This document shows, piece by piece, positions 7,003 through 27,585 of a stretch of DNA of 32,000 bases (its first letter is position 1; each line of letters opens with the position of its first letter). The stretch is from Gemmatimonadaceae bacterium. Lineage in GTDB: Bacteria > Gemmatimonadota > Gemmatimonadetes > Gemmatimonadales > Gemmatimonadaceae. Below the pieces are notes generated by a model that was not told where the DNA came from, searched no databases, and saw nothing but the letters and a program-made list of their open reading frames with translations. The position numbers were made by a program, and so were the translations under genes. The stretch covers positions 814,953-846,952 of the forward strand of contig JBHYGA010000005.1 in assembly GCA_051859245.1 (NCBI GenBank), in the 5' to 3' direction.

Positions 7003-10000
7003 TCACACAGTGAGGCTGGCCGCGTTGGTTTTGTCAGACGACGTGTGCAACAGCGCATCAAGACGCGCGCTCCACGTGGCGCGAATCGAGGACACATGCT
7101 CGGCCGCGCCTCGCGGCTGCACCTTTCGCCACTGCATGCGCGTGCGCGCCCATCCATCAAGCAGTGCGCGGGCGCGCGGACTGGCGGTGCGCACACGATG
7201 TAGTGCGAGCAATCGCTGCACGAGTGCTTCGTCATGCTCATCCAGATCGGCCAACAGCACCAGATCATGGTTGGTGCGACTGGGCAAGCGACCAGATTCG
7301 TCGAGCACGTAGGCCACGCCGTTTGACATGCCCGCTCCAAAGTTGCGCCCCGTGCGACCAAGCACGGCCACCACGCCACCCGTCATGTACTCACAGGCGT
7401 GATTGCCCACACCTTCAACCACGGCACATGCGCCGGAGTTGCGCACCGCAAATCGATCGCCCGCCTGACCTGCGGCGAGCAACACCCCATCGGTGGCGCC
7501 GTACAGCACCGTATTGCCAACGATCATGTTGAGATGACTGGCCCCGCCGTATCGCGCATTGCGGAACGGACGAATGGTGACTTCACCACCCGTGAGTCCT
7601 TTGGCGACGTAATCGTTGGCCTCGCCCTCCAGCTCGACGTGCATACCACGTATTGCGAAGGCCGCAAAACTCTGGCCGGCGCTTCCCGTGCAGCGAAGCA
7701 TCACGCGCCCCGGTTCGAATCCCGCGTCGCCTTTGTGCTCGGCAATCCAGCCCGCAACACGCGCGCCAACCGCGAGATGGTGATTGCGTACGACGTAGGA
7801 ACCACTAAACGGCGCACCCGACGCGAGCGCCTCCGCCGCATCGGTCAGAATCTGTTCGTCAACGGAGACCACATCCGGTCGTACGTTACGCGCAATCGTG
7901 CGACGTGGCGGCACGCCGTCACGATGCGCCCGCGTGAGCAGGAGCGACAGGTCTAGCATCGCTGATCGCGGCAGCTCGGGATGATCAAGCCGTTCGAGAA
8001 GATCGGCGCGACCGATCAGCTCGTCGAGTGAACGCACACCAATGGCCGCCATCTGTTCGCGCACATCCTGTGCTACATGCGCGAAGTAAGAGATCACATG
8101 CTCGGGCGATCCACGAAACTTTGCCCGCAACTCTTCACGCTGTGTTGCAATGCCGGTCGGGCAGGAGTTCAGATGACATTGACGCGCCATGTCACAGCCA
8201 AGTGCCACCAACGGTGCGGTGCCAAAACCAAAACTCTCGGCGCCAAGCATGGCGGCAATGATGACGTCACGTCCGGTACGAAACCCTCCGTCAACGCGAA
8301 GCTCCAGACGATGTCGCAGCCCGTTCTGCACGAGCACATGCTGCGCTTCGGCGAGTCCAAGTTCCCACGGCGAACCGGCGTGTTTGATGCTGGACAGCGG
8401 CGACGCGCCAGTGCCACCTGCGTGGCCCGCAATCAACACGTAGTCCGCGTACGCTTTCGCAACACCGGCGGCGACCGTGCCAACACCGGCCGATGCCACA
8501 AGCTTCACGCCAATGCGTGCGCGCGGATTCACCGTCTTGAGATCGTGCACCAGCTGCGCGAGATCTTCAATCGAATAAATGTCGTGATGCGGCGGCGGTG
8601 AAATGAGCGACACGCCAATGGTGGAGTGTCGCAAGCGTGCGATCAGCGCGGTGACCTTGTGCGCCGGAAGCTGCCCGCCTTCACCGGGTTTGGCGCCTTG
8701 CACAATCTTGATTTCGATTTCATCGGCGCGCACCAGATATCCGGTGGTCACGCCAAAGCGCCCGGACGCCACCTGCTTGATGCGACTATCCAGGCGGTCG
8801 TCCGTGCTCCCCTCCGTGAGCGGTGTGTACCACGCGGGATCTTCACCGCCTTCACCAGAGTTGCTGCGTGCACCCATGCGGTTCATCGCAACCGTTACGG
8901 CGCTATGTGCTTCCGGCGACAGCGCACCCAACGACATCGCCGACGAAACAAATCGCGTGAGAATATTCGCGATCGGTTCCACGTGATCGATGGCGATGGG
9001 GGCACCTTCACGCACACGGATCAGATCGCGTAGTGAAATCGCCTCACTGCCGGAGGACGAGGCACGAAAGCTTTGCCACGATTCGACGTCCGGGCCACCG
9101 TCTGTGTTGCGAGCCTTTCGTGCGCTGCCCACGGCTAACTGCAGCGCGCGTACCGACGGTGGCGACCACGCGTGCCGTTCGCCCTCTTTGCGAAAGCGCA
9201 CGCGTCCGTGATCAGGAAGCACCAGCTCAGACGACGCATGCGTACCAAACGCAGAGCGATGACGCGCGAGTACGTCTTCGGCGATTTCTCGCAACCCAAT
9301 GCCGCCAACGGGCGACGCAGTACCCGCAAAACAACGGTCAATCACATCGCCACCAAGACCCAGCGCTTCGAACATCTGCGCGCCGCAATACGAAGACAGC
9401 GTGCTGATCCCCATCTTGGCAAGAATCTTGAGCAACCCCTTTTCGAGTGCGGCACGCAGTCGCGACTGCGCCAGCGACGGGCCGGGGCGATCGGCGCTTT
9501 CCTCCTCGCGTCCGTGCGCGACGGTTTCGGAGAAGAGTGTTGCCACCGACTCCATGGCCAGCCATGGAAAGACGGCTTCGGCTCCGTAACCGAACAGTGT
9601 GGCCACGTGATGTTGCTCCACCGCGTCACCCGTTTCGACGACAAGGCCAACCTGCGCACGCAAGCCAATGCGTACCAGATGCTGACGCACCGCGCCGAGC
9701 GCAAGCAGTGAAGGAATCGGTGCGCGATCGGCGCTGACTTTTCGGTCGCTGATAATCAGCAGTCGCACGCCTTTGCCAATCGCTGCTTCAGCGCGACGGC
9801 ACAACGCGTCGAGCACGGAGTCGAGCTCGTCGGCGCGGGACGTTGCCGGCCACGTGGCATCGAGCGTTACCGCCTTGAATCCAGGCACGGAGCGCAGTGC
9901 GGCCATTTCATCGGGAAGCAGTACCGGATGTTCAATACGCAGCTTGCGCGCGAACTCGGCCTTCTCCAGTAACGGCGAACCACGCTGGCCAAGGTGCATG

Positions 10001-11697
10001 CGCAGCGACATCACCATCGACTCACGTAGCGAATCGATCGGTGGATTCGTGACCTGCGCAAATCGCTGGCGGAAAAATGCAAATAGCGGATGCGACGCAT
10101 GTGACAGCACCGCGAGCGGTGAGTCATCGCCCATGCTCCAGACGACTTCCGCGCCGCTGCCGGCCATTGGCTCAAGAATCAATCGCAGATCTTCGTGGCC
10201 GTATCCTAACGCGAGTTGCGTTGCGCGAAGTTGCGCGCTGGAACGCACGAGTGGTTCCGATCCGTCACTGGTAGGCAGTGTGGCCATGTGATGTGCCAGC
10301 CAGCGCGCGTACGGTCGCTGCTCGGCAACTTCGCGCTTGGCGGCGATGTTGCGAACAATACGTTGTCCGGCGGTATCCACCAGCAGCACACCGCCAGGGC
10401 CGACCTTGCCCGTCTCCACGATATCGCGCGCATCGAACGCGCCAATGCCCACCTCGGATCCGGCAACGACCATTCCATCGGCGCGGATCTTGTACCGGCA
10501 GGGACGCAACCCGTTGCGATCAAGTGAAACGGCAACCTGAATGCCGTCGCTGTAGGCGATCGCCGCCGGTCCATCCCACGGCTCAATCACACACTGGTGG
10601 TACTCGTAGAATGCACGAATCGTGGGATCAATATCCGGATATTTTTCCCACGCCTGCGGTACGAGCATCATGGCCGCGTGCACGGGCGAGCGGCCACCGC
10701 GCACCAGCAGTTCGAGCGCGTTGTCCAAACTCGACGAATCACTGCCGTTTGGGCGAATCGGTCGGCGCACGCGTTGCGCCTGATCGCCAAACGAAGGTGT
10801 CGCAAGTAATCCGTCACGCATCGACATCGCATTGCGATTGCCCCACAACGTATTGATTTCACCGTTGTGCGCGACCATGCGAAACGGTTGCGCCAGTTCC
10901 CAACGGGGCATGGTGTTGGTCGCGTAACGCTCATGAAACACCGCAATCGCCGTTTCAAATGACGGCTCGCGCAGGTCCGGGAAAAAGTCGGCGAGTTGCG
11001 CGCCCGTAACCAGCCCCTTGTACACAATCGTGCGACACGACAACGAGCAGATGTAAAACGGCTGCAGGCCAAGTGCATCCACGCGGTGCTCCATCTCTCG
11101 ACGTGCCAGATAGAGCGCACGTTCCCACGCGTCGTCTGTTGCACCAGCCGGTCGTCCCACGAGCACCTGTCGAATGCTGGGCATCGCGTCACGTGCGGAG
11201 GGCCCGAGCACGTCCGGGTTCACGGGCACATCGCGCCACCCGAGGCAGGGCAGACCGTCGTCGGCAAGCACGGCCTCAACAATGCGTTCCGCGTGCGCGC
11301 GCGCTTCGATTGCGACAGGCAGAAAGCACATGCCCACGGCGATCGATGCATCCGCAGGCAGATGCAGCCCCTGACGCGAACCTGCCAGCACAAACAGGCG
11401 ACGCGGAATCTGCGTCAGGAGTCCCGCGCCGTCGGCCGAGAGATCCGCGCCCTGCGCACCGCGGTGCGCGAGGCGCGCGGCGGCCGCGAGCGCCAGCTCG
11501 ACCACCTCGTGTGTGCGCTCACCACTTTGCCTCGCGATGAAACCCACGCCGCAGGCATCGCGGCTGGCGTATGGAGATCCAGCGTCAGCGTCGTAGAGGC
11601 TGACCCGACGAGAGGAGGAATGATGCATGGCGTGCTCGGCGAAGAGTCCATCGTCGTGTGCGTGCGCGGCGCGTCGGTACGCGGCGTAGCTGCCCAT
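7003..11697 (-). CDS. gltB: Glutamate synthase large subunit (GltB)
   Basis: Ntn amidotransferase start DACGVGFIA, central FMN/Fe-S domain (LISPPPHHDIYSIEDLAQL, GHAGGTGASP) and C-terminal GXGXG beta-helix domain. Start chosen at Met 11697, with Met 11628 as an alternative. The ORF-track extension up to 12051 overlaps the divergent gene and is unlikely to be translated. Confidence 0.9.
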   Translation of the reverse strand: MGSYAAYRRAAHAHDDGLFAEHAMHHSSSRRVSLYDADAGSPYASRDACGVGFIARQSGERTHEVVELALAAAARLAHRGAQGADLSADGAGLLTQIPRRLFVLAGSRQGLHLPADASIAVGMCFLPVAIEARAHAERIVEAVLADDGLPCLGWRDVPVNPDVLGPSARDAMPSIRQVLVGRPAGATDDAWERALYLARREMEHRVDALGLQPFYICSLSCRTIVYKGLVTGAQLADFFPDLREPSFETAIAVFHERYATNTMPRWELAQPFRMVAHNGEINTLWGNRNAMSMRDGLLATPSFGDQAQRVRRPIRPNGSDSSSLDNALELLVRGGRSPVHAAMMLVPQAWEKYPDIDPTIRAFYEYHQCVIEPWDGPAAIAYSDGIQVAVSLDRNGLRPCRYKIRADGMVVAGSEVGIGAFDARDIVETGKVGPGGVLLVDTAGQRIVRNIAAKREVAEQRPYARWLAHHMATLPTSDGSEPLVRSSAQLRATQLALGYGHEDLRLILEPMAGSGAEVVWSMGDDSPLAVLSHASHPLFAFFRQRFAQVTNPPIDSLRESMVMSLRMHLGQRGSPLLEKAEFARKLRIEHPVLLPDEMAALRSVPGFKAVTLDATWPATSRADELDSVLDALCRRAEAAIGKGVRLLIISDRKVSADRAPIPSLLALGAVRQHLVRIGLRAQVGLVVETGDAVEQHHVATLFGYGAEAVFPWLAMESVATLFSETVAHGREEESADRPGPSLAQSRLRAALEKGLLKILAKMGISTLSSYCGAQMFEALGLGGDVIDRCFAGTASPVGGIGLREIAEDVLARHRSAFGTHASSELVLPDHGRVRFRKEGERHAWSPPSVRALQLAVGSARKARNTDGGPDVESWQSFRASSSGSEAISLRDLIRVREGAPIAIDHVEPIANILTRFVSSAMSLGALSPEAHSAVTVAMNRMGARSNSGEGGEDPAWYTPLTEGSTDDRLDSRIKQVASGRFGVTTGYLVRADEIEIKIVQGAKPGEGGQLPAHKVTALIARLRHSTIGVSLISPPPHHDIYSIEDLAQLVHDLKTVNPRARIGVKLVASAGVGTVAAGVAKAYADYVLIAGHAGGTGASPLSSIKHAGSPWELGLAEAQHVLVQNGLRHRLELRVDGGFRTGRDVIIAAMLGAESFGFGTAPLVALGCDMARQCHLNSCPTGIATQREELRAKFRGSPEHVISYFAHVAQDVREQMAAIGVRSLDELIGRADLLERLDHPELPRSAMLDLSLLLTRAHRDGVPPRRTIARNVRPDVVSVDEQILTDAAEALASGAPFSGSYVVRNHHLAVGARVAGWIAEHKGDAGFEPGRVMLRCTGSAGQSFAAFAIRGMHVELEGEANDYVAKGLTGGEVTIRPFRNARYGGASHLNMIVGNTVLYGATDGVLLAAGQAGDRFAVRNSGACAVVEGVGNHACEYMTGGVVAVLGRTGRNFGAGMSNGVAYVLDESGRLPSRTNHDLVLLADLDEHDEALVQRLLALHRVRTASPRARALLDGWARTRMQWRKVQPRGAAEHVSSIRATWSARLDALLHTSSDKTNAASLTV

Positions 11698-11775
11698 CGC
11701 ACACTCGGCCTTCGGCGCCCATCCGTCAAGAGTGCGGGTGGCGGATGTTACCGTCGGCGCTCTAGCTTTTATCGC

Positions 11776-13104
11776 ATGACGACCCGCCGAGACTTCGTTC
11801 GCCACGCCGCGCTGGTGTCTGCGGCCTCGTTCACCGTGAGTGTACCGGAGCTTCAGCCGCGTACTTCGGCAATAGCGCCGGGCGAGCCGCCGCTCTCGCC
11901 TCAAGCGGGGGATCCCTCTCTGATCGCCCAGGATGAAACCTACTGGGCGAAGGTCGCTGCGCAGTATCGCGTCACCGATCGCACGACCAATCTCGAAGGC
12001 GGGTTCTTTGGCATGATGGCCACACCGGTGCTCGAGGCCTACCATCGCCACATCGATCGCGTGAATCGTGAAAGTTCGTACTTTGCGCGCCGCGAGTATC
12101 CGGCCTTGCTCGCCAATGCGCGGGCACGGGTTGCGCAGGCACTCGGTGTTGCGCCGACCGAGATTGCGTTCTCGCGCGGCGCCACCGAATCGCTGCAGTC
12201 GCTGATCGGTCAGTACAATCGCGTGAACGCTGGTGATACCGTGATGTACGCGGATCTCGACTACAACGCGATGCAGTATGCCATGAATGCGTTGGCGGCG
12301 CGTCGTGGCGCTACGGTGGCAACGCTGAATTTTCCTGAGCCGGCGTCGGTGCCAGCGATTCTTGCGGCGTATACCGCAGCGTTAGATGCCCATCCGCGAA
12401 CAAAGTTGTTGCTGCTCACGCACTGCAACAACAAAACCGGGCTGATTCATCCTGTGCGTGCCATCGCCGATATTGCGCGAGCGCGTGGCGTGGATGTCAT
12501 TCTCGACGCTGCCCACTCATTTGGCCAGGTGCCGATTGAGCTCTCTGAACTCGGTGCAGATTTTGTTGGGCTCAACTTGCACAAGTGGATTGGTGCACCG
12601 GTGGGTGCGGGCGTGATGTACATTCGGGCCGGTCGACTCGACGCGATTGACCGCGCGCACGGTGACGAAGGGTCGCTCGATCGCATCGATAGTCGCATTC
12701 ACACCGGCACCACAGATTTTGCGACGGTACTCACGATTCCGGACGCTCTCGATTTTCAGGCTACGATCGGCTTTGCAAACAAGAGCGCTCGGCTGCGCTT
12801 TCTCCGAGACCGATGGGCGGTGCCCGCACGCGCCATCCCGGGCGTTGATATTCTCACACCAGATGAACCGGGGCTGGTAGGAGCGATTACCGCGTTTCGC
12901 CTGCACGGACGCGGCACGCGAGAGGCCAATCAGGCCGTGGCGCGAACGCTGCTCGAGGAGTTTGGCCTGTTCACCGTGTGGCGCAATGGCCTGGCCAAAG
13001 GCGACTGTGTACGTGTCACGCCCGCGCTCTACAACACGCCGGCCGATTGTGACCGATTGCTGGTCGCGCTGCGCGAGATCGCGTCGCGCTCAAGTGGCGC
13101 ATGA
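11776..13104 (+). CDS. Class-V aminotransferase-fold PLP-dependent enzyme with twin-arginine signal peptide
   Basis: ATG at 11776 gives MTTRRDFVRHAALVSAASF, a Tat-type S/T-RRxF motif plus hydrophobic region. The body resembles the cysteine desulfurase / isopenicillin-N epimerase family, with a LNLHKWIGAP lysine motif. The listed ORF from 10996 is antisense to gltB upstream of this Met. Confidence 0.75.
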   Translation: MTTRRDFVRHAALVSAASFTVSVPELQPRTSAIAPGEPPLSPQAGDPSLIAQDETYWAKVAAQYRVTDRTTNLEGGFFGMMATPVLEAYHRHIDRVNRESSYFARREYPALLANARARVAQALGVAPTEIAFSRGATESLQSLIGQYNRVNAGDTVMYADLDYNAMQYAMNALAARRGATVATLNFPEPASVPAILAAYTAALDAHPRTKLLLLTHCNNKTGLIHPVRAIADIARARGVDVILDAAHSFGQVPIELSELGADFVGLNLHKWIGAPVGAGVMYIRAGRLDAIDRAHGDEGSLDRIDSRIHTGTTDFATVLTIPDALDFQATIGFANKSARLRFLRDRWAVPARAIPGVDILTPDEPGLVGAITAFRLHGRGTREANQAVARTLLEEFGLFTVWRNGLAKGDCVRVTPALYNTPADCDRLLVALREIASRSSGA

Positions 13105-13656: not shown

Positions 13657-15471
13657 ATGACGTTTCCGCCGCTGCCGCCGGCTATTGAGGAAATGTTCGA
13701 CGTGATCCGCCCGCTTGGTCAGGGTGGAATGGGTGCCGTGTGGCTTGTGCGCGATCGATTTCTTGAGCGTGAAGTTGCGCTCAAGGTGTTGCTCGACGAG
13801 CACACGGGTTTTGACATGCGCGAGCGTTTCCTGCGAGAAGCGCGCACGAGTGCACGTCTTGAACATCCGCACATCATCGACGTGTACCGCGCCGATGAAA
13901 CAGAAGGCAGCGTCTGGTTCACCATGCGGTACGTGGAGGGCGAGACACTCGGCGATCGCATTCGGGAGCGCGGCGCGCTGCCCGTGGCCGATGTGGCGCG
14001 CATTCTTCGTGAAGTGGCCTGGGGGCTCGCCTACGCGCACGCGCGCGGCATTGTGCACCGCGATATCAAACCCGACAACATTCTGCTCGATCGTGAATCC
14101 GGGCGCGCCGTGCTGTCGGACTTCGGTATTGCGCGCGATCCGTCGAACAAGGCGAGTGGTCTGACCGTTGACGGGCACGTGCTCGGTTCGGTTCACTTCA
14201 TGAGTCCTGAACAGGCGTCCGGCGAAGAGCTAGACGGACGCAGTGATCTGTACGCGGTTGGTGTGGTGGGCTATCTCGCATTGAGTGGCAAACTGCCGTT
14301 TGATGGCACGCCGCAAAGTGTGCTCGTGTCTCACGTGACCAAAGCAGTACCGTCACTCGACGACGTCGCGCCAAGTTTGCCGCGCAGTATTGTTGATGTG
14401 ATTGAGCGCTGTCTCCGAAAGAATCCGGCCGATCGGTATGCATCGGCAGACGCACTCGCGGGTGCGCTCGACGCCGCCATGCGCGACGCGCAACAAATCG
14501 CTCAGCGTGACGCAGACTCGTCGCCCGGCGCGGTGCTTTCGTCGGAGGACGCACTGGTGATCTGGCAGCGCGCCGCACAGTTGCAGGCGGAAGCGGCTCA
14601 TCGCATGGAGCGCAATGCGCGGTTGCAGAGCAACAATGGCGCGAACGCTGGTGTGAGTGAGCCGGGTAGCTTTCGTGTGGCGGAAGTTGAGGCCGCCGCT
14701 GTCGAAGCGGGCATTTCGCGACAGTATGTGGCGTTGGCGCTGGCAGAGCGGCGGGCTGGCGATCGGAACGCGAATGCCGTCGTGCTGAGTGAATCACAGG
14801 ACGCACAGTTTACCGCGCTGCTTGGCACGAAGGACCGCGCCGTCAGCGTATCGCGTGTGATCCCAGCGTCGCCCAAGGTCACGCTGGCGGCGATCGGCGC
14901 CGTGTTCACCGCCGATCCGTATCGGCTCAATGTCCGCGACACGGTGAACGGCCATCCGATTGACGGAGGCATTCTGCGTTTCACCGCGCCGCGATTTACC
15001 ACGGCGGCCTGGATCACCGGTGCAACATCCAAAAGCAATCTGCTGTATCGTTTGGAGCAGATTGAGTTGTTCGATCTCAACGTGACGCTGCAGCCACGCG
15101 GCACGCCGCAGCATCCGGCCTGCGAAGTGATCATTACGGGCGATCTGCGCAGTGGACTTGAACGCAATCTGCGCGCCGACAAGTGGATTGTGGGCACCAG
15201 TACCGTGATCGCCGGCGCCGGTGGAACGGCCGCACTGATCGGCACGATGGGATCGCTCGCCCTCGCGGCGCTGCCCGGAGTGGGGCTCGCCGCGATGGCT
15301 GGCAGCGCGGCGTTGGTGTGGTATCGCTGGCTCTTCCGTCAGGCGCTAGCCAAGGCCGTCATCGAGCTTGAAGGCTTGCTCGAAAGCATCGAGAAGTATC
15401 TCTCGCGCAAAGAACTTTTTGGAGATCTGGACGAGCGCGGCAACGTGCCGCGTCTTGGCGGAGCGCGCTAG
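13657..15471 (+). CDS. Ser/Thr protein kinase with uncharacterised C-terminal region and C-terminal hydrophobic anchor
   Basis: Hanks kinase motifs: GQGGMGAVW, VALK, HRDIKPDNILL, DFGIA and SPEQ. About 330 residues follow the kinase domain, ending in a Gly/Ala-rich hydrophobic stretch (IAGAGGTAALIGTMGSLALAALPGVGLAAMAGSAALVWY). Confidence 0.85.
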   Translation: MTFPPLPPAIEEMFDVIRPLGQGGMGAVWLVRDRFLEREVALKVLLDEHTGFDMRERFLREARTSARLEHPHIIDVYRADETEGSVWFTMRYVEGETLGDRIRERGALPVADVARILREVAWGLAYAHARGIVHRDIKPDNILLDRESGRAVLSDFGIARDPSNKASGLTVDGHVLGSVHFMSPEQASGEELDGRSDLYAVGVVGYLALSGKLPFDGTPQSVLVSHVTKAVPSLDDVAPSLPRSIVDVIERCLRKNPADRYASADALAGALDAAMRDAQQIAQRDADSSPGAVLSSEDALVIWQRAAQLQAEAAHRMERNARLQSNNGANAGVSEPGSFRVAEVEAAAVEAGISRQYVALALAERRAGDRNANAVVLSESQDAQFTALLGTKDRAVSVSRVIPASPKVTLAAIGAVFTADPYRLNVRDTVNGHPIDGGILRFTAPRFTTAAWITGATSKSNLLYRLEQIELFDLNVTLQPRGTPQHPACEVIITGDLRSGLERNLRADKWIVGTSTVIAGAGGTAALIGTMGSLALAALPGVGLAAMAGSAALVWYRWLFRQALAKAVIELEGLLESIEKYLSRKELFGDLDERGNVPRLGGAR

Positions 15472-19609: not shown

Positions 19610-20656
19610 ATGTACACCACCTGTATCTTTTGTCACGCAGCGCTCGGCGCCAACGACGTTATTGAACAGTTCCCTGTTGGCCGTCGCATCGCATTCGACG
19701 CCGATCAGGGTCGCCTGTGGGTCGTGTGTCCCAAGTGTGAACGCTGGAATCTCTCGCCGTTTGAAACACGCTGGGAAGCGATAGAAGAAGCGGAGCGTCA
19801 ATACCGAAATACACGCCGCCGTGTCGCCACCGACAACATTGCCCTCGCGCGTCTGCCTGAGGGACTAGAGCTCGTGCGCATCGGTCGACCGCTCAGACCA
19901 GAGTTTGCGGCGTGGCGATACGGTGATCAGTTCGGACGTCGACGGCGGCGCCTCTTGGGCTATGGCTTGGGAGGGGCGGCATTGGCGGCGGTGGGTGTCG
20001 TCGCCGTCGGACCGGCCGTTGCGGTTGGCGCGGGATTGGGTTTTCTCCCCTCGCTCGTCAACCTCGGCAATACGCTCCTCCATTATTCCCGTCCCGTTGC
20101 GCGTATGCATGACCGCAACGGTGACGTACTCGGACTCACTCGAAACAATCTTGTGCATGCGGAGCTGAGTGTTTTCAGTGAAAACGCGGTCGCGCTCACT
20201 TTCGACCATCGTCGCTTCGCGCGCGACGGTGCACTATCCTCGAGGTTGGGCGTAGCCGGGAAAGGACGCGCCGAGCTACACGGCGACGAGGCACTCCGCG
20301 CGCTCGCCAGTCTGTTGCCCGCGCTTAATCGAAGTGGCGGAAGCGATCGATCCGTAGCACGAGCGGTACACGCAGTAGAAGCGGCGGGGTCAATCGGCAC
20401 GTTGCTACAGCACGCGTCCAATTCTGATCGCCGGTCTCCGCTCAGCGTGGCCGCATGGTCAAGTGGGAGTACGCATCGTCATGCGCTGATCACGTACACC
20501 ACACCCATGCGCCTCGCGCTCGAAATGGCGCTACACGAAGACGATGAACGCCGCGCGATGGCCGGTGAACTCGGCGCGCTCTACGCCCGGTGGGAAGAAG
20601 CCGAGCGTGTGGCCAGGATTGCAGATGGCGAGCTGACGTCACTGCCGAACGCTTAG
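19610..20656 (+). CDS. Uncharacterised zinc-ribbon / hydrophobic-segment protein, paralog 1 of 4
   Basis: Starts MYTTCIFC, 4 nt after the mutase stop. It is co-linear with the three tandem copies: CxxC-x31-CxxC, RWEAIEE, LVRIGRPLxPEFAAWRYG, a Gly/Ala-rich hydrophobic stretch and C-terminal ALEMALHEDDERRAMAGELGALYARWEEAE. The upstream part of the listed ORF (19523-19609) overlaps the mutase gene. Confidence 0.8.
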   Translation: MYTTCIFCHAALGANDVIEQFPVGRRIAFDADQGRLWVVCPKCERWNLSPFETRWEAIEEAERQYRNTRRRVATDNIALARLPEGLELVRIGRPLRPEFAAWRYGDQFGRRRRRLLGYGLGGAALAAVGVVAVGPAVAVGAGLGFLPSLVNLGNTLLHYSRPVARMHDRNGDVLGLTRNNLVHAELSVFSENAVALTFDHRRFARDGALSSRLGVAGKGRAELHGDEALRALASLLPALNRSGGSDRSVARAVHAVEAAGSIGTLLQHASNSDRRSPLSVAAWSSGSTHRHALITYTTPMRLALEMALHEDDERRAMAGELGALYARWEEAERVARIADGELTSLPNA

Positions 20657-20718
20657 TCAGAGCAATGGACTGATCGGTCCATCAGGCGTGGTGGGCGAGG
20701 CCGACTAGTATTCTCGCC

Positions 20719-23076
20719 ATGCGTCTCCTGTTGCTCTGTCTGCTGCTCGTCACATCGGCCCCGCTCGCTCTGGCGCAGCGTGGCGACTCGCGCGTCTATC
20801 ACGCGCGCGACGGCAACACTGCCGTGGCCCTGAGCGCGCCGGTTGATGCCACCATTGTTATCGATGGCAAGCTCGATGAGCCGGTGTGGAGCAGTGCGGC
20901 CAGACTCACGGGCTTTTCCATGTACCGGCCGGTGGATCAGCAGGCCGCGCCGGATTCCACCGAGATTCTTGTCTGGTATTCATCGGCCGCGCTTCACATT
21001 GGCGTGCGTGCGTTTGAAACGCATGGCGCGGTGCGGGCAACGCTGGCAGATCGCGATCGTGTCGCCAGCGATGATCACGTGGAGATTCATCTCGACACCT
21101 TCGATGAGCGTCGACGCGCGTTTGTCTTTATGGTGAACGCACTCGGCATTCAGGCCGACGGCACAAAAGCCGAAGGTGGTGGATTCATTCCCGGCTCGAA
21201 CGTGGCACCTGGTCAGAATGATCTGAGTCCGGACTTTCAGTGGCAGTCGCGCGGTGAGGTCACCGACTACGGCTATGAAGTGGAGCTGCGCATTCCGTTC
21301 AGCAGCCTGCGATTTCCCGAAGGCGGGCCGCAGCGTTGGGGCTTTCAGGTCATTCGCCACGTGCAACACAGCGGCTACCAGCAAACGTGGACACCCGCGC
21401 GGCAGGGCGCCGCGTCATTCGTTGGGCAGGCCGGTTCGCTCGAAGGTCTGCGCGACATGCGACATGGTCTCGATGTGACGCTGAATCCGGAGCTGACCAC
21501 CAGCGTGGCTGGTGTGCCGGCAGTGGCTGGTTCCGGCGACGCATGGCAATACACCAACACGCCGCGCATTGGTGGCAACATTCGCGCTGGCCTCGGCAGC
21601 AACTTCGTGCTTAACGGCGCCATCCGACCGGATTTTTCGCAGGTGGAAGCAGACGCGTTGCAGGTGGCCGCCGATCCACGCTTCGCGCTCTTTTATCCCG
21701 AACGCCGTCCCTTCTTCGTGGAAGGTTCGGATCAGTTCAACGTGCCCAATACGCTGGTGTACACGCGTCGCATTGTGCAGCCGGATGCAGCGCTCAAACT
21801 CACGGGCAGGGTAGGGCGCGGCAATATTTCGTTGCTCTCTGCGATTGAGGCCCCGGTCGCCGGCAGCAATGACAGTCGACCCATCGCAAACATTGTACGC
21901 CTCACACGCGATTTTGACGAGCAATCGCAAGCTGGTCTGTTGTACAGCGAGCGTGTTGGCGGAGGTTCAGCGAATCGTGTCATTGGCGCAGACGTGCGAC
22001 ATGTGTTCGGAGGCCTGTATTTCTTGCAGCTGCAGGCCGCAACGGCAATCACGCGAGCTGCGGCGCGCACGCGCAACGGTTCGCTATGGGAAGCCACGGT
22101 CGATCGCACCGGACGTTCGTGGGGGTTCAATTACAAGCTGCTCGGCATTCAGCCCGACTTTCGTGCCGACAACGGCTTTGTCGCGCGCACGGGTTATGTG
22201 CAACCCGCGCTGAATAACCGCATCACGATTTTCGGCACACCTGGTAAGCTGTTCGAACGTTACAACGTGTTTATTGGCACCTCGGGGTTGTGGCGCTACG
22301 ATGACTTCTTCGCAAGTCGGCGTGTGCTCGAAACACGCTTTAGCGCGAACAATCAGGTCACCTTTCGCAAAGGCTGGTCGGTATCGTTCACGCCTTCGTA
22401 CTCCGGCTACGCGTTTGATCCGGCTGCATTTGCCAATCTCGGCACGGGCAATGGCACGGCAACGCCCGACGCATTCGTGCCGGCGCGCCAACTCAATGCC
22501 ACCAGCTTTGCCTTCTCTGTATCAACACCGCAGTTCCGCCGCTTCTTCGCATCGGCTGGGGTGACACAAGCACGCGATGTGGATTTCGCCGAAACCACGC
22601 CGGTCGACCGCACGGCCGTGACCGCCGAGCTCACGTTGCGTCCCACGGAGCGTTTGCGCGCGAACGCAACCTACGCGAGCAACGAGTTCGTGCGCACGGC
22701 CGACGGTCTCTCAAGCTTCTCCACGCGCATTCCGCGACTGCGTGTGGAGTATCAGCTCTCGCGCTTTGTGTTTGTACGCGTGGTGTCGCAGTATGAAGCC
22801 AATCGACGCGAGCCGTTGCGCGACTATCGCACGGGACTCGCGCTGCTGGAGCGACAGTCTGACGGTACGTACGTGCCGTCCGTGCGTCGCAGCAGCAACG
22901 TACTGCGCACAGACTGGCTGTTCTCCTTTCGCCCGAGGCCAGGAACCACGCTGTTTGCGGGCTACGGGAGCAGTCTCACCGAACCAGATGCGTTGGCGTT
23001 CAGTTCGCTGCGGCGCGCGAGCGACGGCATTTTCATTAAGGCGAGCCTGTTCTTGCAGCGAAAGGCGTTTCAGTAA
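20719..23076 (+). CDS. Secreted CBM9-like / DUF5916-type protein, probable outer-membrane beta-barrel
   Basis: Signal peptide MRLLLLCLLLVTSAPLALAQ. The N-terminal block IDGKLDEPVWSSAARLTGF ... DDHVEIHLDTFDERRRAFVFMVNALGIQADG matches the carbohydrate-binding-family-9-like domain that precedes DUF5916. A long region of alternating beta-strand character follows. Confidence 0.65.
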   Translation: MRLLLLCLLLVTSAPLALAQRGDSRVYHARDGNTAVALSAPVDATIVIDGKLDEPVWSSAARLTGFSMYRPVDQQAAPDSTEILVWYSSAALHIGVRAFETHGAVRATLADRDRVASDDHVEIHLDTFDERRRAFVFMVNALGIQADGTKAEGGGFIPGSNVAPGQNDLSPDFQWQSRGEVTDYGYEVELRIPFSSLRFPEGGPQRWGFQVIRHVQHSGYQQTWTPARQGAASFVGQAGSLEGLRDMRHGLDVTLNPELTTSVAGVPAVAGSGDAWQYTNTPRIGGNIRAGLGSNFVLNGAIRPDFSQVEADALQVAADPRFALFYPERRPFFVEGSDQFNVPNTLVYTRRIVQPDAALKLTGRVGRGNISLLSAIEAPVAGSNDSRPIANIVRLTRDFDEQSQAGLLYSERVGGGSANRVIGADVRHVFGGLYFLQLQAATAITRAAARTRNGSLWEATVDRTGRSWGFNYKLLGIQPDFRADNGFVARTGYVQPALNNRITIFGTPGKLFERYNVFIGTSGLWRYDDFFASRRVLETRFSANNQVTFRKGWSVSFTPSYSGYAFDPAAFANLGTGNGTATPDAFVPARQLNATSFAFSVSTPQFRRFFASAGVTQARDVDFAETTPVDRTAVTAELTLRPTERLRANATYASNEFVRTADGLSSFSTRIPRLRVEYQLSRFVFVRVVSQYEANRREPLRDYRTGLALLERQSDGTYVPSVRRSSNVLRTDWLFSFRPRPGTTLFAGYGSSLTEPDALAFSSLRRASDGIFIKASLFLQRKAFQ

Positions 23077-23105
23077 AGCAAGTCAGTGTGTGCTACGCAC
23101 GAAGT

Positions 23106-23963
23106 CTACTTGGCGATCACGCGCCGCTTCATATCGTAACGAGTGCCGGGGCCGAGTTTCACGAACGGCGCTGCTGCTGTCGGTTTGCTCCGATCGTGCA
23201 CCGCCACATCGGCCTTGCCCAGCACTTCAAACGTGTCGCCCTGCACCACGATGGCGGTGCTTTCTGACAATCCGATCCCAATGTATTCGGGGAACTTGTC
23301 CATCACCGGAATCAGATCGTTCCAGCGATTGCGCGCGTCAACGTGCTGGTCAATGGCGGACTTGCGCAGAAAATCGAATGCATCCTGATGCTCCGGTTCC
23401 GGCGCCATCATGATCTGCGGTCCGGCCACCGCACCGCGCACCAGATACGTGCCCTGAATCGTGGCGCCCGCCGAGCTGCCACCGATCACGCCGCCGCGCG
23501 TGAGTACACGGTGAAATGCATGATACGATTTCGTGCCCGCGTACGAGTCCGCAATGTTCCACTGTCGCCCGCCATTAAACCACACGCCTTTGGCGTCGAG
23601 CAGCAGCGAGCTGAACGAATCGGTATCGGCAATCTTTCGGTCATGCGTGTGCAGCATGTGCACGTTGGTGAGACCGCGTGCTTTCCACGACGCGAGCACG
23701 CGCGTTGCGTCGTAGGGAATAAGCGTGCCGTCTGGCCGCGCATTGCCGCCGGCCGTAGGAACGATCACGATCTTTGCATGCGGTCCGCCGGCGAGCTCCA
23801 CAAAACGTTCGATAATGCCGGTGCCGTCCAGCTGTCCGCCCCCCGCAATCACCAGACTTCCGTTCGCTGGGCCGTGAACTGGCGCGTCTTGCGCCGGCAG
23901 TCGCACGCCGAGCAGTAGCAATCCTGTCATCAGTGGGTGCAGCAGTCGTTGCAGGCGTGACAT
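23106..23963 (-). CDS. Secreted peptidase S51 family (cyanophycinase-like)
   Basis: The Met at 23963 gives a signal-like N-terminus MSRLQRLLHPLMTGLLLLGVRLPAQ. The sequence then reads SLVIAGGG and includes the nucleophile motif GGSSAGA typical of cyanophycinase / dipeptidase E-like enzymes. The upstream part of the listed ORF (to 24131) overlaps the divergent paralog gene. Confidence 0.7.
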   Translation of the reverse strand: MSRLQRLLHPLMTGLLLLGVRLPAQDAPVHGPANGSLVIAGGGQLDGTGIIERFVELAGGPHAKIVIVPTAGGNARPDGTLIPYDATRVLASWKARGLTNVHMLHTHDRKIADTDSFSSLLLDAKGVWFNGGRQWNIADSYAGTKSYHAFHRVLTRGGVIGGSSAGATIQGTYLVRGAVAGPQIMMAPEPEHQDAFDFLRKSAIDQHVDARNRWNDLIPVMDKFPEYIGIGLSESTAIVVQGDTFEVLGKADVAVHDRSKPTAAAPFVKLGPGTRYDMKRRVIAK

Positions 23964-24087
23964 GCAGTCGCTCGGAGATGCGGTGTGGGTTATGGTCGGG
24001 CTCGCTCTCAATGATGGCGTGACGGCACCGTGACGTCCAGCGATGTGGGCTCTTGTTCTGATCGTGCCTGCGCACGAAGTTGCCACG

Positions 24088-25113
24088 GTGTTTGCGACCT
24101 GCCTCTTCTGCCACAGTTCGCTCGGCGCCAATCAGAGCATCGAGCACTTCCCGGTGGGCAAACGTCTCGCGTTCGATGCGGAGCGGGGCCGGCTCTGGGC
24201 CGTGTGTCTGCGATGTGGGCGGTGGAACCTGTCGCCGCTTGAGGAACGATGGGAGGCGATTGAGGAGTGCGAGCGCGCGTATCGCGGCACCACGCAGCGC
24301 GTGTCGACGGACAACATCGCGTTGGCCCGCCTCAAGGATGGCACCGATTTGGTGCGCATCGGGCGTCCGTTGTTGCCGGAGTTCGCGGCGTGGCGGTACG
24401 GAGATCAGCTGGGGGTGCGGCGTAAACGGCATAACGCCATCGCAACAATTGGCGGCATCTCAAGCTTAGGGCACTTCGGTTTGGTAGGGTTGATGGCAGC
24501 AGATGTCGTCACCGGCGCGGGTTTCTCAATGCTTTCCATCGGCATCAACACCGTGTCGATAGCGGCGGGGAAAAAGCAGGATCGTCCGGTAACGCACGTG
24601 GCCGTGCCCGGTGTCGCACGCCTGCCCATGCGTGCGATTGAGTCTTACGACACAACGGTATCGTTCGACAATGACCGGCAGATGCGGCTCCACGTGACAC
24701 TCCGCGTACCCCGGGCTCGGCTGCGTTTCTTCAGTGCGAAACAGCGTTTCACGCTCACGGGGGACGCGGCACGCAAGGGCCTGAGCAGCGCGATTGTTGG
24801 CGTGAACCATCGAGGAGCAAAGAACGCAGAAGTGAAGGCCGCGGTCGCGGAAGCAGAGCGTTCCACAACGGCGCAGACGTTGCTCGATCGTTTCGCGGAG
24901 AACGCCCGCAACAGCTCGGAGTTCTACCCCGGCGTTCTCGCTCACAAGCCCCCCGAACAACGCTTCGCCCTCGAAATGTTGCTCCACGAAGAAGACGAAC
25001 GTCGCGCCATGGCGGGCGAACTCGGCGACCTCTACGCGCGTTGGCAAGACGCCGAGCGCATCGCTAACATCGCTGACGCCGAGCTTACACCACTGCCGAG
25101 CAACGAGTCGTAA
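24088..25113 (+). CDS. Uncharacterised zinc-ribbon / hydrophobic-segment protein, paralog 2 of 4 (first of tandem trio)
   Basis: The GTG at 24088 gives VFATCLFC, aligned with the first residues of the other three copies. The ATG at 24043 adds 15 residues that no paralog has. It shows the same N- and C-terminal conserved modules and ends with TAA at 25111-25113. Confidence 0.8.
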   Translation: MFATCLFCHSSLGANQSIEHFPVGKRLAFDAERGRLWAVCLRCGRWNLSPLEERWEAIEECERAYRGTTQRVSTDNIALARLKDGTDLVRIGRPLLPEFAAWRYGDQLGVRRKRHNAIATIGGISSLGHFGLVGLMAADVVTGAGFSMLSIGINTVSIAAGKKQDRPVTHVAVPGVARLPMRAIESYDTTVSFDNDRQMRLHVTLRVPRARLRFFSAKQRFTLTGDAARKGLSSAIVGVNHRGAKNAEVKAAVAEAERSTTAQTLLDRFAENARNSSEFYPGVLAHKPPEQRFALEMLLHEEDERRAMAGELGDLYARWQDAERIANIADAELTPLPSNES

Positions 25114-25116
25114 CGC

Positions 25117-26130
25117 GTGTTCGCCACCTGTTTGTTCTGTCTGAAGTCGCTCGGTGCAAACCAGCGCATCGAGCACTTCCCGATCGGCCGTCGTCTCGCG
25201 TTCGATGCGGAACGCGGTCGACTCTGGGCCGTGTGCACGAAGTGTGGCCGCTGGAATCTCACGCCACTCGAGGAACGGTGGGAAGCGATTGAGGAGTGTG
25301 AGCGGGCGTATCGCGCTGAGCGTCGTCGTGTGTCGACCGATCACATTGGTCTCGCGCGACTAAACGAGGGTACGGATCTTGTGCGTATCGGCCAACCGTT
25401 GCTGCCAGAGTTCGCGGCGTGGCGCTACGGTGAGCAACTGCGCAGCAGGCGAAAACGCTGGCTTTGGACCACGGCACTCGTGGCGGGCGCACCAGTGGCG
25501 ATTCTCGCACTGCAAGGATTCGCCCTCTACCATTGGCTGGGCGTAGGCGCGTTGACCTTGGGTGGCGCGCAGATTGGCCAGAGCGTGTCTACGTTGATCG
25601 AAGCGCGTCGTCCTATCGGCAAGATCAGGCTGCCAGATGGAACGGTGGAGCCCATGATGGCGCGACACCTCGACGCGTCAGTGATCAACGTGAGCCCCGA
25701 AGGCGACGTCAACGCTGAGATTCACTATCGCGAGCGCAGTCGCCTCGGGCCACTCACCGCGATCGATCGGGTGTTGCGAGTGAGTGGGCCTGAGGCACGA
25801 CCAGTGCTTCGTGATGTGATGCCCGTGTTCAACGGCGCCGGCGGAAGCCGCCTTGAGGTGCATGAAGCAGTGCAGACCGTGCAGCACGTGGGCGACGAAC
25901 TCACACTGCTCAAGCGCTACGGCGCGCATCGGCTCAATCCAGAACGCCGGAGTGGTGCCCTCAGCACATCGCGCTTCTACCTGGCCCTTGAAATGCTGCT
26001 CCACGAAGAAGACGAGCGCCGCGCCATGGCCGGCGAACTCGGAGAACTCTACGCGCGCTGGGAAGACGCCGAACGCATTGCCAAGATCGCGGACGGAGAG
26101 CTCACGGTACTCGCGAACAGCGAGACATAA
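25117..26130 (+). CDS. Uncharacterised zinc-ribbon / hydrophobic-segment protein, paralog 3 of 4
   Basis: GTG start 3 nt after the previous stop (TAACGCGTG). N-terminus MFATCLFCLKSLGANQRIEHFPIGRRLAFDAERGRLWAVCTKCGRWNL. C-terminus ALEMLLHEEDERRAMAGELGELYARWEDAERIAKIADGELT. Confidence 0.85.
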   Translation: MFATCLFCLKSLGANQRIEHFPIGRRLAFDAERGRLWAVCTKCGRWNLTPLEERWEAIEECERAYRAERRRVSTDHIGLARLNEGTDLVRIGQPLLPEFAAWRYGEQLRSRRKRWLWTTALVAGAPVAILALQGFALYHWLGVGALTLGGAQIGQSVSTLIEARRPIGKIRLPDGTVEPMMARHLDASVINVSPEGDVNAEIHYRERSRLGPLTAIDRVLRVSGPEARPVLRDVMPVFNGAGGSRLEVHEAVQTVQHVGDELTLLKRYGAHRLNPERRSGALSTSRFYLALEMLLHEEDERRAMAGELGELYARWEDAERIAKIADGELTVLANSET

Positions 26131-26133
26131 CGC

Positions 26134-27156
26134 GTGTTCGCAACCTGTCTTTTTTGCCTCAAACCGCTCGGTGCCAACCAGCGCATCGAACATTTTCCGA
26201 TCGGGCGTCGCCTGGCATTCGATGCCGACCGTGGTCGTCTCTGGGCGGTGTGCACACACTGCGGACGCTGGAACCTCACACCGCTCGAAGAACGGTGGGA
26301 AGCCATTGAGGAATGTGAACGTGCGTATCGCGACGAACGTCGTCGCGTGTCAACGGATCACATTGGCCTCGCGCGTTTGAACGACGGCACGGACCTGGTG
26401 CGCATTGGTCAACCGTTGCTGCCGGAGTTCGCGGCGTGGCGGTATGGCGAACAGTTGCGCCGTCGGGGCAAAAAGTTCGCAGCGAAGTTCGCGCTCGTGA
26501 GCGCCGCGCCGGTGGCACTCGCCGCTGGGTCACTGCTGGCGGGGAGACACTGGTTCGGCGTTGGCATGGCTTCGATCAGCGCGGTGCAGCTGACACAACT
26601 TGCCACCTCCTTCTATCAAGCTTCGCGCCCTGTTGGCCGTATCAAACTTGCCGACGGCACGCTTCAGCCGGTGAACATGCGACAAGTCGCCGCCTCCGTC
26701 ATCAGCGCGACACCAGAAGGCGAGATCGACGCGAAAATTCACTTTGGTACGCGCGGCCGAACGAGTGCGTTCAAGGCGAACGATCGCGTCCTGCATGTGA
26801 GCGGGCCTGAGGCTCGGCCGGTTTTGCGCGACGTGATTCACCTCTTCAACTATGCCGGCGCGAGTCGCCTCTCAGCGCACGAGGCGGTGCAAACCGTGCA
26901 GGAAGTGGGCGACGAACTCTCGCTGATCAAACGCTACAGCGCGCACCGAGTACGGCCCGAGCGAGGACGGGGCGCGATCCACAATGGCAGTTTCTACCTC
27001 GCCCTCGAAATGCTCCTCCACGAAGAAGACGAACGCCGCGCCATGGCCGGCGAGCTCGGCGAACTCTATGCCCGCTGGGAAGACGCCGAGCGCATCGCCA
27101 AAATCGTGGATGGCGAGCTCACGCCGCTGGGCACCAGCCCGGCCGCTCGCAGTTGA
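26134..27156 (+). CDS. Uncharacterised zinc-ribbon / hydrophobic-segment protein, paralog 4 of 4
   Basis: It has the identical junction TAACGCGTG and a GTG start. It is co-linear with paralog 3 along the whole length and is its closest relative. Differences in the conserved ends are overwhelmingly synonymous. Confidence 0.85.
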   Translation: MFATCLFCLKPLGANQRIEHFPIGRRLAFDADRGRLWAVCTHCGRWNLTPLEERWEAIEECERAYRDERRRVSTDHIGLARLNDGTDLVRIGQPLLPEFAAWRYGEQLRRRGKKFAAKFALVSAAPVALAAGSLLAGRHWFGVGMASISAVQLTQLATSFYQASRPVGRIKLADGTLQPVNMRQVAASVISATPEGEIDAKIHFGTRGRTSAFKANDRVLHVSGPEARPVLRDVIHLFNYAGASRLSAHEAVQTVQEVGDELSLIKRYSAHRVRPERGRGAIHNGSFYLALEMLLHEEDERRAMAGELGELYARWEDAERIAKIVDGELTPLGTSPAARS

Positions 27157-27219: not shown

Positions 27220-27585
27220 ATGCCGACTTACGAGTTTCGTTGTCCCGACGGCACGATCGTCGAAAAGTTCTTCAAAATCTCCGAAGTGCCAGACACTATT
27301 CCGTCGCCCAAGGGCGACGGCGACGCGGTGCGCATGATCACCGGCGGCGCGGGTCTCGTGTTCAAGGGCTCCGGCTTTTACATCACGGATTACGGCAAGG
27401 ACGGCAAGAAGGATCAGCGCGCCGCGCCGTCGACCACCAAGTCGGAGAGCGCGAGCTCGTTGTCGACGTCATCCGACGCGGCGCCTGCGGCCAAGTCTGA
27501 TGCGAAGTCCGCGAGTGACTCCACGCCCAAGAGTGACAAGCCGGCCGCCGCAAGCACGCCGGCCACGCCGCCCAAAAAGGACTGA
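27220..27585 (+). CDS. FmdB-family-like small protein with degenerate zinc ribbon and Ser/Ala/Lys-rich tail
   Basis: MPTYEFRC ... VFKGSGFYITDYGK matches the ends of the FmdB/CxxC_CxxC_SSSS family. Only one of the four expected Cys remains (CPDG and PSPKGDG replace the CxxC knuckles). The C-terminal ~55 residues are low complexity. Confidence 0.65.
   Translation: MPTYEFRCPDGTIVEKFFKISEVPDTIPSPKGDGDAVRMITGGAGLVFKGSGFYITDYGKDGKKDQRAAPSTTKSESASSLSTSSDAAPAAKSDAKSASDSTPKSDKPAAASTPATPPKKD

Follow-up and report, generated by a model that had tools for sequence, protein, structure and literature searches.

We describe here four paralogous genes, called A to D, in a 32,000-nucleotide (nt) stretch of DNA from a Gemmatimonadaceae bacterium (contig JBHYGA010000005.1; this whole stretch is referred to below as the window). 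They are members of an undescribed and unnamed protein family that is restricted to the phylum Gemmatimonadota as far as it has been sampled, and their products combine a strongly conserved N-terminal domain with four cysteines, a predicted membrane hairpin, a variable central domain and a near-invariant C-terminal helix (Table 1).

Four members of an undescribed Gemmatimonadota family

All four open reading frames (ORFs) lie on the forward strand, encode proteins of 337-348 amino acids (aa) and can be aligned from end to end, as had been claimed by the original prediction, which called them full-length, co-linear paralogs. The ORF of paralog B opens at an ATG at position 24043, and we place its start at a later GTG (Table 1) because the family alignment begins there and because C and D also start with GTG. 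The gaps between B and C and between C and D are 3 nt each. Pairwise protein identities among the four are 44-50%, with the exception of C and D, which are 71-72% identical and are mutual nearest relatives. Paralog A has orthologs with 62-67% identity in four other loci (L004, L007, L008 and L012), where the copy also follows the mutase gene. Residue numbers below are those of copy C (25117-26130), and a separate profile numbering is used for covariation and helix positions.

The family is large. A word-indexed search returned 7,236 proteins at E <= 1e-3 among 8,000 scored candidates, with E values of the best homologs reaching 1e-204, well outside what chance would give; all of the matches are unnamed or called "hypothetical protein", and where a source is named it is Gemmatimonadaceae or Gemmatimonadota. 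Clustered at 90% identity, the family amounts to more than 7,000 groups. An exhaustive hidden Markov model (HMM) search gave 2,625 proteins (1,138 at E <= 1e-30) out of 1.84 billion representatives at 50% identity, and the best 150 of these 2,625 matches are essentially full length. When one genome per GTDB species was searched, at least 572 family loci were found, almost all of them in Gemmatimonadota, Longimicrobiales included. The 80 best of these loci are from Gemmatimonadales or Longimicrobiales, except for three metagenome-assembled genomes (MAGs) labelled Phycisphaerae or "bacterium", labels that may reflect binning or labelling issues. Locus L003 (JAWXBD010000107.1), on an 8.7-kb contig of a MAG labelled Phycisphaerae (Planctomycetota), has a family gene that is split across frames and is 62% identical to copy C; a binning error is the likely explanation there, and lateral transfer is possible.

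Does the family have relatives that are already known? The original prediction had not recognized the combination of domains, and had proposed HMMER searches against Pfam and NCBIfam and Foldseek comparison of AlphaFold models as checks. Both were run, and they bear out its failure to find a name: Pfam gave no match for the four window proteins or for 50 diverse family members, the window copies had no meaningful match in NCBIfam, PADLOC or PHROGs, profiles built from 4 and from 50 sequences matched nothing among PDB sequences, and Foldseek searches with confident AlphaFold models gave no significant match in PDB or BFVD. Nothing on this family was found in the literature.

The pattern of conserved ends and a variable middle, noted originally for the four copies, extends to the whole family, and every conserved block that had been listed is present and conserved family-wide. 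Each of the cysteines C5, C8, C40 and C43 occurs in 262-265 of 265 members, and in a 50-member alignment these cysteines and 48 other columns are invariant. Among the same 265 members, residues 1-112 include many invariant Arg, Trp, Gly and Pro positions, and the C-terminal helix (consensus RLALEMALHEEDERRALEGELAALEARWREAEEIAAIADNLLLP) has E296, E304, G310, L315, W319, A322 and D330 (profile numbering) at 100%. The two end modules have column entropies of about 0.4-1.4 bits, vs 2.1-3.8 bits for the hairpin and central domain, and no part of the protein is less conserved in sequence than the hairpin.

Ratios of nonsynonymous to synonymous substitution rates (dN/dS) between the window paralogs are 0.02-0.14 in the N-terminal module, 0.11-0.30 in the C-terminal helix and 0.2-0.46 in the central domain, so that the central domain is constrained, yet freer to change than the ends. 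Synonymous divergence (dS) between the paralogs in the conserved ends is about 0.7-2.5, and this saturation rules out gene conversion as the source of their conservation; because dS is saturated there and dN/dS is low, the ends are kept by purifying selection on the protein. The family is real, ancient, vertically inherited and strongly constrained. The original prediction had allowed that it might be sporadic or absent in close relatives; it is phylum-wide and is present in relatives.

Table 1. Paralogs, domains of copy C and two context genes in the window
Feature	Position	Strand	Remarks
Paralog A	19610-20656	+	348 aa; begins 4 nt past the methylmalonyl-CoA mutase stop codon; "after-mutase" lineage
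Paralog B	24088-25113	+	341 aa; first of a strict tandem triplet; GTG start at 24088
Paralog C	25117-26130	+	337 aa; reference for numbering and for the structure model
Paralog D	26134-27156	+	340 aa; recent duplicate of C
Predicted N-terminal C4 zinc-ribbon domain (C residues 1-95)	25117-25401	+	C5, C8, C40, C43; pLDDT 85-92 in the full model
Juxtamembrane block PEFAAWRYG(D/E)Q and Arg/Lys patch (C residues 96-114)	25402-25458	+	the 12 residues preceding the hydrophobic run carry a net charge of +4
Gly/Ala-rich uncharged stretch, predicted two-helix membrane hairpin (C residues 115-163)	25459-25605	+	column entropy 2.4-3.7 bits; poorly conserved
Variable central alpha/beta domain (C residues 164-283)	25606-25965	+	five strands, then three helices; pLDDT 89-95
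Near-invariant acidic C-terminal helix LALEMLLHEEDERRAMAGELGELYARWEDAERIAKIADGELT (C residues 284-335)	25966-26121	+	3-4 heptad pattern; small residues
DUF5916/CBM9-like protein	20719-23076	+	signal peptide; Pfam matches; context only
S51 peptidase, cyanophycinase-like	23106-23963	-	TIGR02069 103.9 bits vs cutoff 126.6; context only

Predicted architecture, topology and helix pairing

The AlphaFold2 (AF2) model of copy C has an overall predicted local distance difference test score (pLDDT) of 85 and a predicted template modelling score (pTM) of 0.73. It has strands at residues 26-30, 35-39 and 46-48, a helix at 54-67 and strands at 71-73, 77-81 and 87-91 in the N-terminal domain, then a long helix (99-140) and a second helix (146-163) across the hydrophobic stretch, a five-stranded sheet (166-223), three helices (224-272) and a single 52-residue helix (284-335).

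The four cysteines of the N-terminal domain make up two CxxC knuckles that are placed on predicted beta hairpins, with strands 26-30 and 35-39 just before C40-x2-C43 and strand 46-48 after it, and from this arrangement we infer that the domain binds zinc in a structural role. It resembles established C4 zinc ribbons (FmdB/CxxC_CxxC_SSSS, PF09723/TIGR02605; TFIIB-type, PF13453) in having invariant cysteines in two CxxC knuckles by a beta hairpin, in this family at the extreme N-terminus. It differs from them in matching no profile (the sole zinc-ribbon match was Zn_ribbon_TFIIB at E = 0.15 in 1 of 50 members), in its 31-residue spacer, in its helix and three strands, and in being a domain of ~95 residues without a match in PDB. 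No paralog matched PF09723 or TIGR02605; the gene at 27220-27585 (below) does, though under the cutoffs. Zinc ribbons are structural motifs and carry no information on function. An oligonucleotide/oligosaccharide-binding (OB) fold for the same domain was hinted at by the order beta1-3, alpha, beta4-5 and by weak matches to SSB and PriB (probability 0.4-0.5); it was rejected when a model of the domain alone recovered no OB proteins, the best match having E = 0.04 and a root-mean-square deviation >14 A.

Topology was judged from the longest uncharged run after the WRYG block in 366 family members. This run has a median length of 42 residues (at least 36 in 290 of the 366), consists of 38% Gly+Ala, and has a mean Kyte-Doolittle value of 1.3; the net charge of its flanks, family-wide, is +4 on the upstream side and +2 on the downstream side, and only 5 of the 366 members have another strongly hydrophobic window. 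Under the positive-inside rule, basic flanks indicate the cytoplasmic side of the membrane. Because the ~42-residue stretch is uncharged and both of its flanks are basic, a membrane hairpin with both ends inside and a minimal periplasmic turn is the likely topology of the family, which would place the Cys4 site in the reducing cytoplasm and make every folded domain cytoplasmic. The membrane tether of the original prediction agrees both with these statistics and with the two AF2 helices that cross the stretch. The second hairpin helix is polar (Q, S, T, N), and a conserved "RP" and the five-stranded beta domain come directly after the hairpin.

Two known kinds of protein have layouts that can be compared with this one. 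The aerotaxis receptor Aer, which consists of an N-terminal PAS domain, a membrane hairpin, and HAMP and signalling domains, shares with the predicted layout of the family an N-terminal cytoplasmic domain, a two-helix hairpin with hardly any periplasmic loop, a cytoplasmic C-terminus and a proposed contact between the N and C parts, but the family has no PAS, HAMP, methyl-accepting or other known signalling domain, so the likeness is an analogy of layout and not homology. Proteins of the YdbS/YdbT type with bacterial pleckstrin homology (PH) domains (bPH_2, PF03703) have in common with the predicted layout of the family a two-helix hairpin that leads straight into a small beta-rich domain on the cytoplasmic side, with a helix as its cap; they differ in having neither the zinc ribbon nor the conserved C-terminal helix. 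Fifty members gave no bPH_2 match at E <= 1, and no PH-like structure was among the Foldseek matches.

The central region had originally been described as roughly 170 residues long, divergent and alignable. Alignable and variable it is, but the domain has about 120 residues (164-283), the larger figure taking in the hairpin as well. It contains the semi-conserved motif L.G..A..AL...LP..N..GG....V..AV.

Covariation was analyzed by mean-field direct coupling analysis (DCA) of 372 non-identical members (about 298 effective sequences), and 30 of the top 60 pairs fall within the N-terminal domain. The top pair overall is D303-R318 (profile numbering), with D/R in 165 sequences and S/A/Q/T together with A in 132, and it behaves like a salt bridge. 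The two positions are 15 apart on one straight helix in the AF2 model. Pairs 303-318, 302-318, 299-318, 298-323 and 293-321 share an anti-diagonal band (i+j = 614-621) that has the invariant G310 at its centre, and positions 308, 312, 315, 319, 322, 326, 329 and 333 form an Ala-rich heptad stripe with a 3-4 pattern (Ala at 322, 326 and 329). Because of this band and this stripe, the C-terminal helix is suggested to pair tightly and antiparallel around G310. The pairing would most likely be that of a homodimer, and heterodimers between paralogs are conceivable because the paralogs share the helix. Couplings between the N-terminal module and the C-terminal helix (among them R96 with 301/302 and A101 with 301) are three-fold enriched over other inter-region pairs, which is suggestive, and only that, of docking of the N-terminal domain onto the helix.

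Copy number and genomic neighbourhood

Genomic context was compared in 81 fetched loci, the window and 80 others. One full-length copy is present in 59 of the 81, and the rest have tandem arrays of 2-5 copies. Two-copy tandems are common to L043, L050, L052 and L064, and local duplications include C/D in the window and the arrays in L024, L055 and L069; the tandem arrays are the result of lineage-specific duplication, in a birth-and-death manner.

Broken copies were found as well. In the fifth copy of a five-gene array (L085 4119-5177 and L086 1-966), the central domain is interrupted by an in-frame TAG (…ISDAV*LLERSP…). Two independent assemblies (NCBI GCA_038205995.1 and Logan SRR19962015) share this break, and the copy is probably a genuine nonsense pseudogene and not a sequencing error. 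In L081, on a 3.98-Mb contig, a three-gene cassette in inverted orientation (an unannotated ORF and genes for a Dcm-type DNA methylase and a Vsr endonuclease) lies between a truncated gene with only the central domain and C-terminal helix (487-1173) and an isolated C-terminal helix fragment (4001-4309), and genes for an S8 peptidase, an AAA ATPase, and a helix-turn-helix protein and M78 peptidase are found beside it. A family gene seems to have been disrupted there, and in part duplicated, by a rearrangement or an insertion. When the helix consensus was used as the query, 440 short proteins of 49-104 aa were retrieved. Stand-alone C-terminal helix proteins were ruled out, as the contexts of these ORFs and a scan with the family HMM identify them as C-terminal pieces of frameshifted, stop-interrupted or rearranged genes, and the JGI label "AmiR/NasT" on two of the fragments is spurious. 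Domain fusions in longer members were ruled out too, their extra length being due to mis-called starts, insertions in the central domain or merged tandem copies. P0011 (462 aa), for example, joins a full member to residues 1-96 of the tandem copy that follows it, by read-through or by a merge in gene calling.

The window is a housekeeping chromosomal segment (GC 59-69%, mean about 62%) that also encodes GltB, FBPase, ComEC, TspO, a Ser/Thr kinase, a flavin monooxygenase, an esterase, methylmalonyl-CoA mutase, ArgS, a PfkB kinase and PurM. In its relatives the gene order is mutase, family copy, [DUF5916, more copies], fmdB, argS, pfkB and purM. The more distant loci L059 and L074 have a single copy between mutase and fmdB-argS and have neither the DUF5916 nor the S51 gene, so the DUF5916 gene and the extra copies are later insertions.

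The original prediction had grouped the four genes with those of an outer-membrane protein and of a secreted peptidase, and had proposed to see whether these neighbours co-occur with the family in other genomes. The adjacency is there in the window; a conserved system is not. The DUF5916 gene is present in 6 of the 80 other loci, adjacent to a family gene in five (L004, L006-L008 and L057) and about 4.4 kb off in L009, and is found mainly in the closest relatives; in L057, which belongs to an unrelated lineage, the DUF5916-like gene directly after the family gene is 29% identical, and the nearest family relatives of that copy are without one. The S51 gene is present in 5 of the 80, in variable position, and lies upstream of the mutase gene in L004 and L008. 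Its ORF in the window runs to 24131, a 56-codon 5' extension, and its start is probably the Met codon at 23963 (MSRLQRLLHPLMTGLLLLG..., signal-peptide-like), which leaves a divergent intergenic region of ~124 nt between it and paralog B. The product is an S51 peptidase whose specificity is uncertain, because its TIGR02069 score is below the cutoff (Table 1).

De novo clustering of the neighbours in the 81 loci gave no partner present in more than 16 of them. The commonest are a divergently oriented cysteine desulfurase gene (16 of 81) and MnmA, and the others are assorted housekeeping genes. The family therefore has no conserved neighbourhood, which the original prediction had named, together with a sporadic distribution, as counting against its interpretation; the family is not sporadic. 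We judge that the DUF5916 and S51 neighbours are not functionally linked to it and are an accident of local order in one sub-clade. Rfam gave no match to any RNA family, upstream regions showed no enriched k-mer beyond the shared ends of the preceding genes, and promoter and terminator scans were at background level.

Three other genes of the window call for comment. Directly after paralog D and upstream of argS, 27220-27585 (+) encodes a 121-aa FmdB-type CxxC_CxxC protein that matches Zn_ribbon_8 and TIGR02605 at E about 2e-6 (27.8 bits vs cutoffs of 34.4 and 31.3) and has a long Ser/Ala/Lys/Asp-rich low-complexity tail; this gene belongs with argS and not with the family, because the pair recurs in L001, L004, L006, L023, L059 and L074. 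The 604-aa Ser/Thr kinase (13657-15471, +) ends in a ~45-residue Gly/Ala-rich hydrophobic stretch (…VIAGAGGTAALIGTMGSLALAALPGVGLAAMAGSAALVWYRWLF…) with a helical tail after it; the stretch resembles the hairpin anchor of the family, and no sequence relationship between them was detected. The ORF of the glutamate synthase large subunit (7003-12051, -; 1,682 aa) overlaps by ~1 kb a 702-aa ORF (10996-13104, +) similar to class-V aminotransferases and cysteine desulfurases, and the real start of the latter gene is probably near 12,000, because its Pfam match begins at residue 348.

A possible membrane-tethered scaffold and its rivals

What might such a protein do? We tentatively picture it as a hairpin-anchored cytoplasmic adaptor or sensor scaffold, a reading that we hold with somewhat less than even confidence. 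The Gly/Ala-rich helical hairpin would anchor the protein in the inner membrane with both ends in the cytoplasm and would serve as an anchor only. One conserved cytoplasmic unit would be made up of the N-terminal module together with the beginning of the C-terminal helix, and this helix (~50 residues, acidic and amphipathic) would pair antiparallel with that of a second copy around the invariant glycine, in homodimers or conceivably in heterodimers among paralogs. Paralogs would differ in the ligand or client that they bind, by way of the variable central domain. Because the protein has no enzymatic or known output domain, its work as an adaptor or sensor scaffold tethered to the membrane would depend on contacts with other proteins, and it would act independently of the adjacent DUF5916 and S51 genes. 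The original prediction had suggested sensors or adaptors whose conserved ends share one partner and whose middles differ in specificity; the data favour at least as much the idea that the conserved ends contact each other and that the C-terminal helix dimerizes.

Several points weigh against this scaffold picture. The hairpin is only moderately hydrophobic (mean Kyte-Doolittle about 1.3), and peripheral or re-entrant membrane association or a soluble helical bundle is a possible alternative reading of the stretch. The pLDDT of the N-terminal domain falls to 75 when it is modelled by itself, vs about 90 in the full model, a drop that is confounded by the shallower alignment. The covariation is based on only about 300 effective sequences, several of the pairs between the N-terminal module and the C-terminal helix are the signature of a single sub-clade (A78/Y316/R324/E32, 73 sequences), and by simple count such pairs are marginal among the top 60 (9 observed vs about 6.5 expected). 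The AF2 prediction is that of a monomer, docking of the two ends and dimerization being putative, and no homolog offers functional information.

The alternative closest to the original prediction is that the paralogs work in the envelope as one functional system with two neighbours, the DUF5916/CBM9-like protein of the outer membrane and the S51 peptidase, which is secreted; the family would supply, for example, inner-membrane sensors or adaptors for uptake or degradation. It draws on the adjacency in the window, on the recurrence of the order A-DUF5916-copy in L004 and L006-L008 and on the DUF5916-like gene after the L057 copy, but four of the six other loci with DUF5916 are close relatives (>80% identity), and it has to contend with the lack of that gene beside relatives of the L057 copy, the different position of S51 in L004 and L008, the loci L059 and L074 in which mutase, one copy, fmdB and argS stand without either gene, the low ceiling on any neighbour cluster, and the predicted cytoplasmic position of all family domains; it is largely refuted and we give it very little chance. 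A membrane-tethered transcription regulator, akin to a zinc-binding anti-sigma (ZAS) factor or a membrane-bound one-component regulator, in which the zinc-ribbon and C-terminal helix module would hold back a conserved cytoplasmic factor and let it go on a signal from the central domain, would account for a cytoplasmic, predicted zinc-binding N-terminus followed by a membrane anchor, for a conserved surface of the interaction type with invariant Arg, Trp and acidic residues, and for paralogs with variable putative sensor domains. ZAS factors (zf-HC2, PF13490) share with the family that N-terminus and anchor and possibly the sequestering of a partner, but the family has C-x2-C-H in place of the H-x3-C-x2-C motif of zf-HC2/ZAS, no Pfam match, an N-terminal domain that is predicted to be beta-rich and not helical, two membrane helices and no extracytoplasmic or periplasmic domain. 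No sigma-factor gene lies beside the window paralogs, and neither sigma-factor nor regulator genes are among the recurrent neighbour clusters of the 81 loci. We regard such a regulator as rather improbable.

A phylum-specific structural or housekeeping organizer of the membrane (a cytoskeletal, division or envelope-biogenesis anchor), with conserved ends that bind the machinery and a middle that is a neutrally drifting spacer, would fit the phylum-wide occurrence, mostly as single copies among housekeeping genes (argS, purM, iscS/mnmA and mutase), and the extreme conservation of the ends. The central domain, however, has the highest pLDDT of the model and a dN/dS that indicates a constrained fold and not a spacer, and birth-and-death expansion to five tandem copies would be unusual for core machinery; this explanation is unlikely, though worth keeping in mind. 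An oligomeric channel or pore with the MscS-like layout of a pore helix and a beta domain after it, its pore lined by the Gly/Ala-rich amphipathic second helix and gated by the cytoplasmic domains, was considered since the hairpin has a polar second helix and is followed by "RP" and a five-stranded beta domain. An MscS-like channel (PF00924) was rejected by hhalign, which gave the family profile a probability of 0.2% against E. coli MscS over 5 aligned columns; there is also no MS_channel match in Pfam, the only channels among the Foldseek matches are insignificant polycystin ones, and the hairpin is the least conserved segment, unlike pore-lining helices, so that a channel of any kind is very improbable. 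A component of anti-phage defence or a mobile element, finally, could be thought of in view of the tandem arrays with a variable middle and of the remnant beside the Dcm-Vsr cassette and S8/AAA genes in L081. The family, however, has no PADLOC or PHROG match (zero families of PADLOC-DB 2.0 at E <= 1), it is inherited vertically across the phylum in housekeeping contexts, GC is uniform across the region, and no family copy was found in IMG/VR viral contigs, PLSDB plasmids or GenBank phages. A mobile or defence origin was rejected on these null results, and we consider it hardly credible.

A bolder form of the preferred scaffold picture would make the family a phylum-defining inner-membrane scaffold of a type not seen before, with a new fold anchored by the hairpin, in which an "Alacoil-like" helix pairs any two paralogs in antiparallel fashion and the tandem arrays yield combinatorial homo- and heterodimers that each display different central domains on a common zinc-ribbon platform. 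We think it improbable in this full form; if it were true, Gemmatimonadota would have in the combinatorial scaffold a modular recognition system of their own, close to the membrane. There is so far no evidence of an unusual mechanism in the family.

Recognition that the DUF5916 and S51 neighbours are incidental should prevent the spread of a false "system" annotation. Gemmatimonadota are among the most abundant phyla in soil, with few cultured species and a cell biology that is barely known. A family with thousands of members, several copies per genome and near-invariant modules is a candidate for a lineage-specific cellular function in these bacteria, and it lends itself well to definition as a new entry in Pfam/NCBIfam, to structure determination and to genetic work in Gemmatimonas aurantiaca or G. 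phototrophica.

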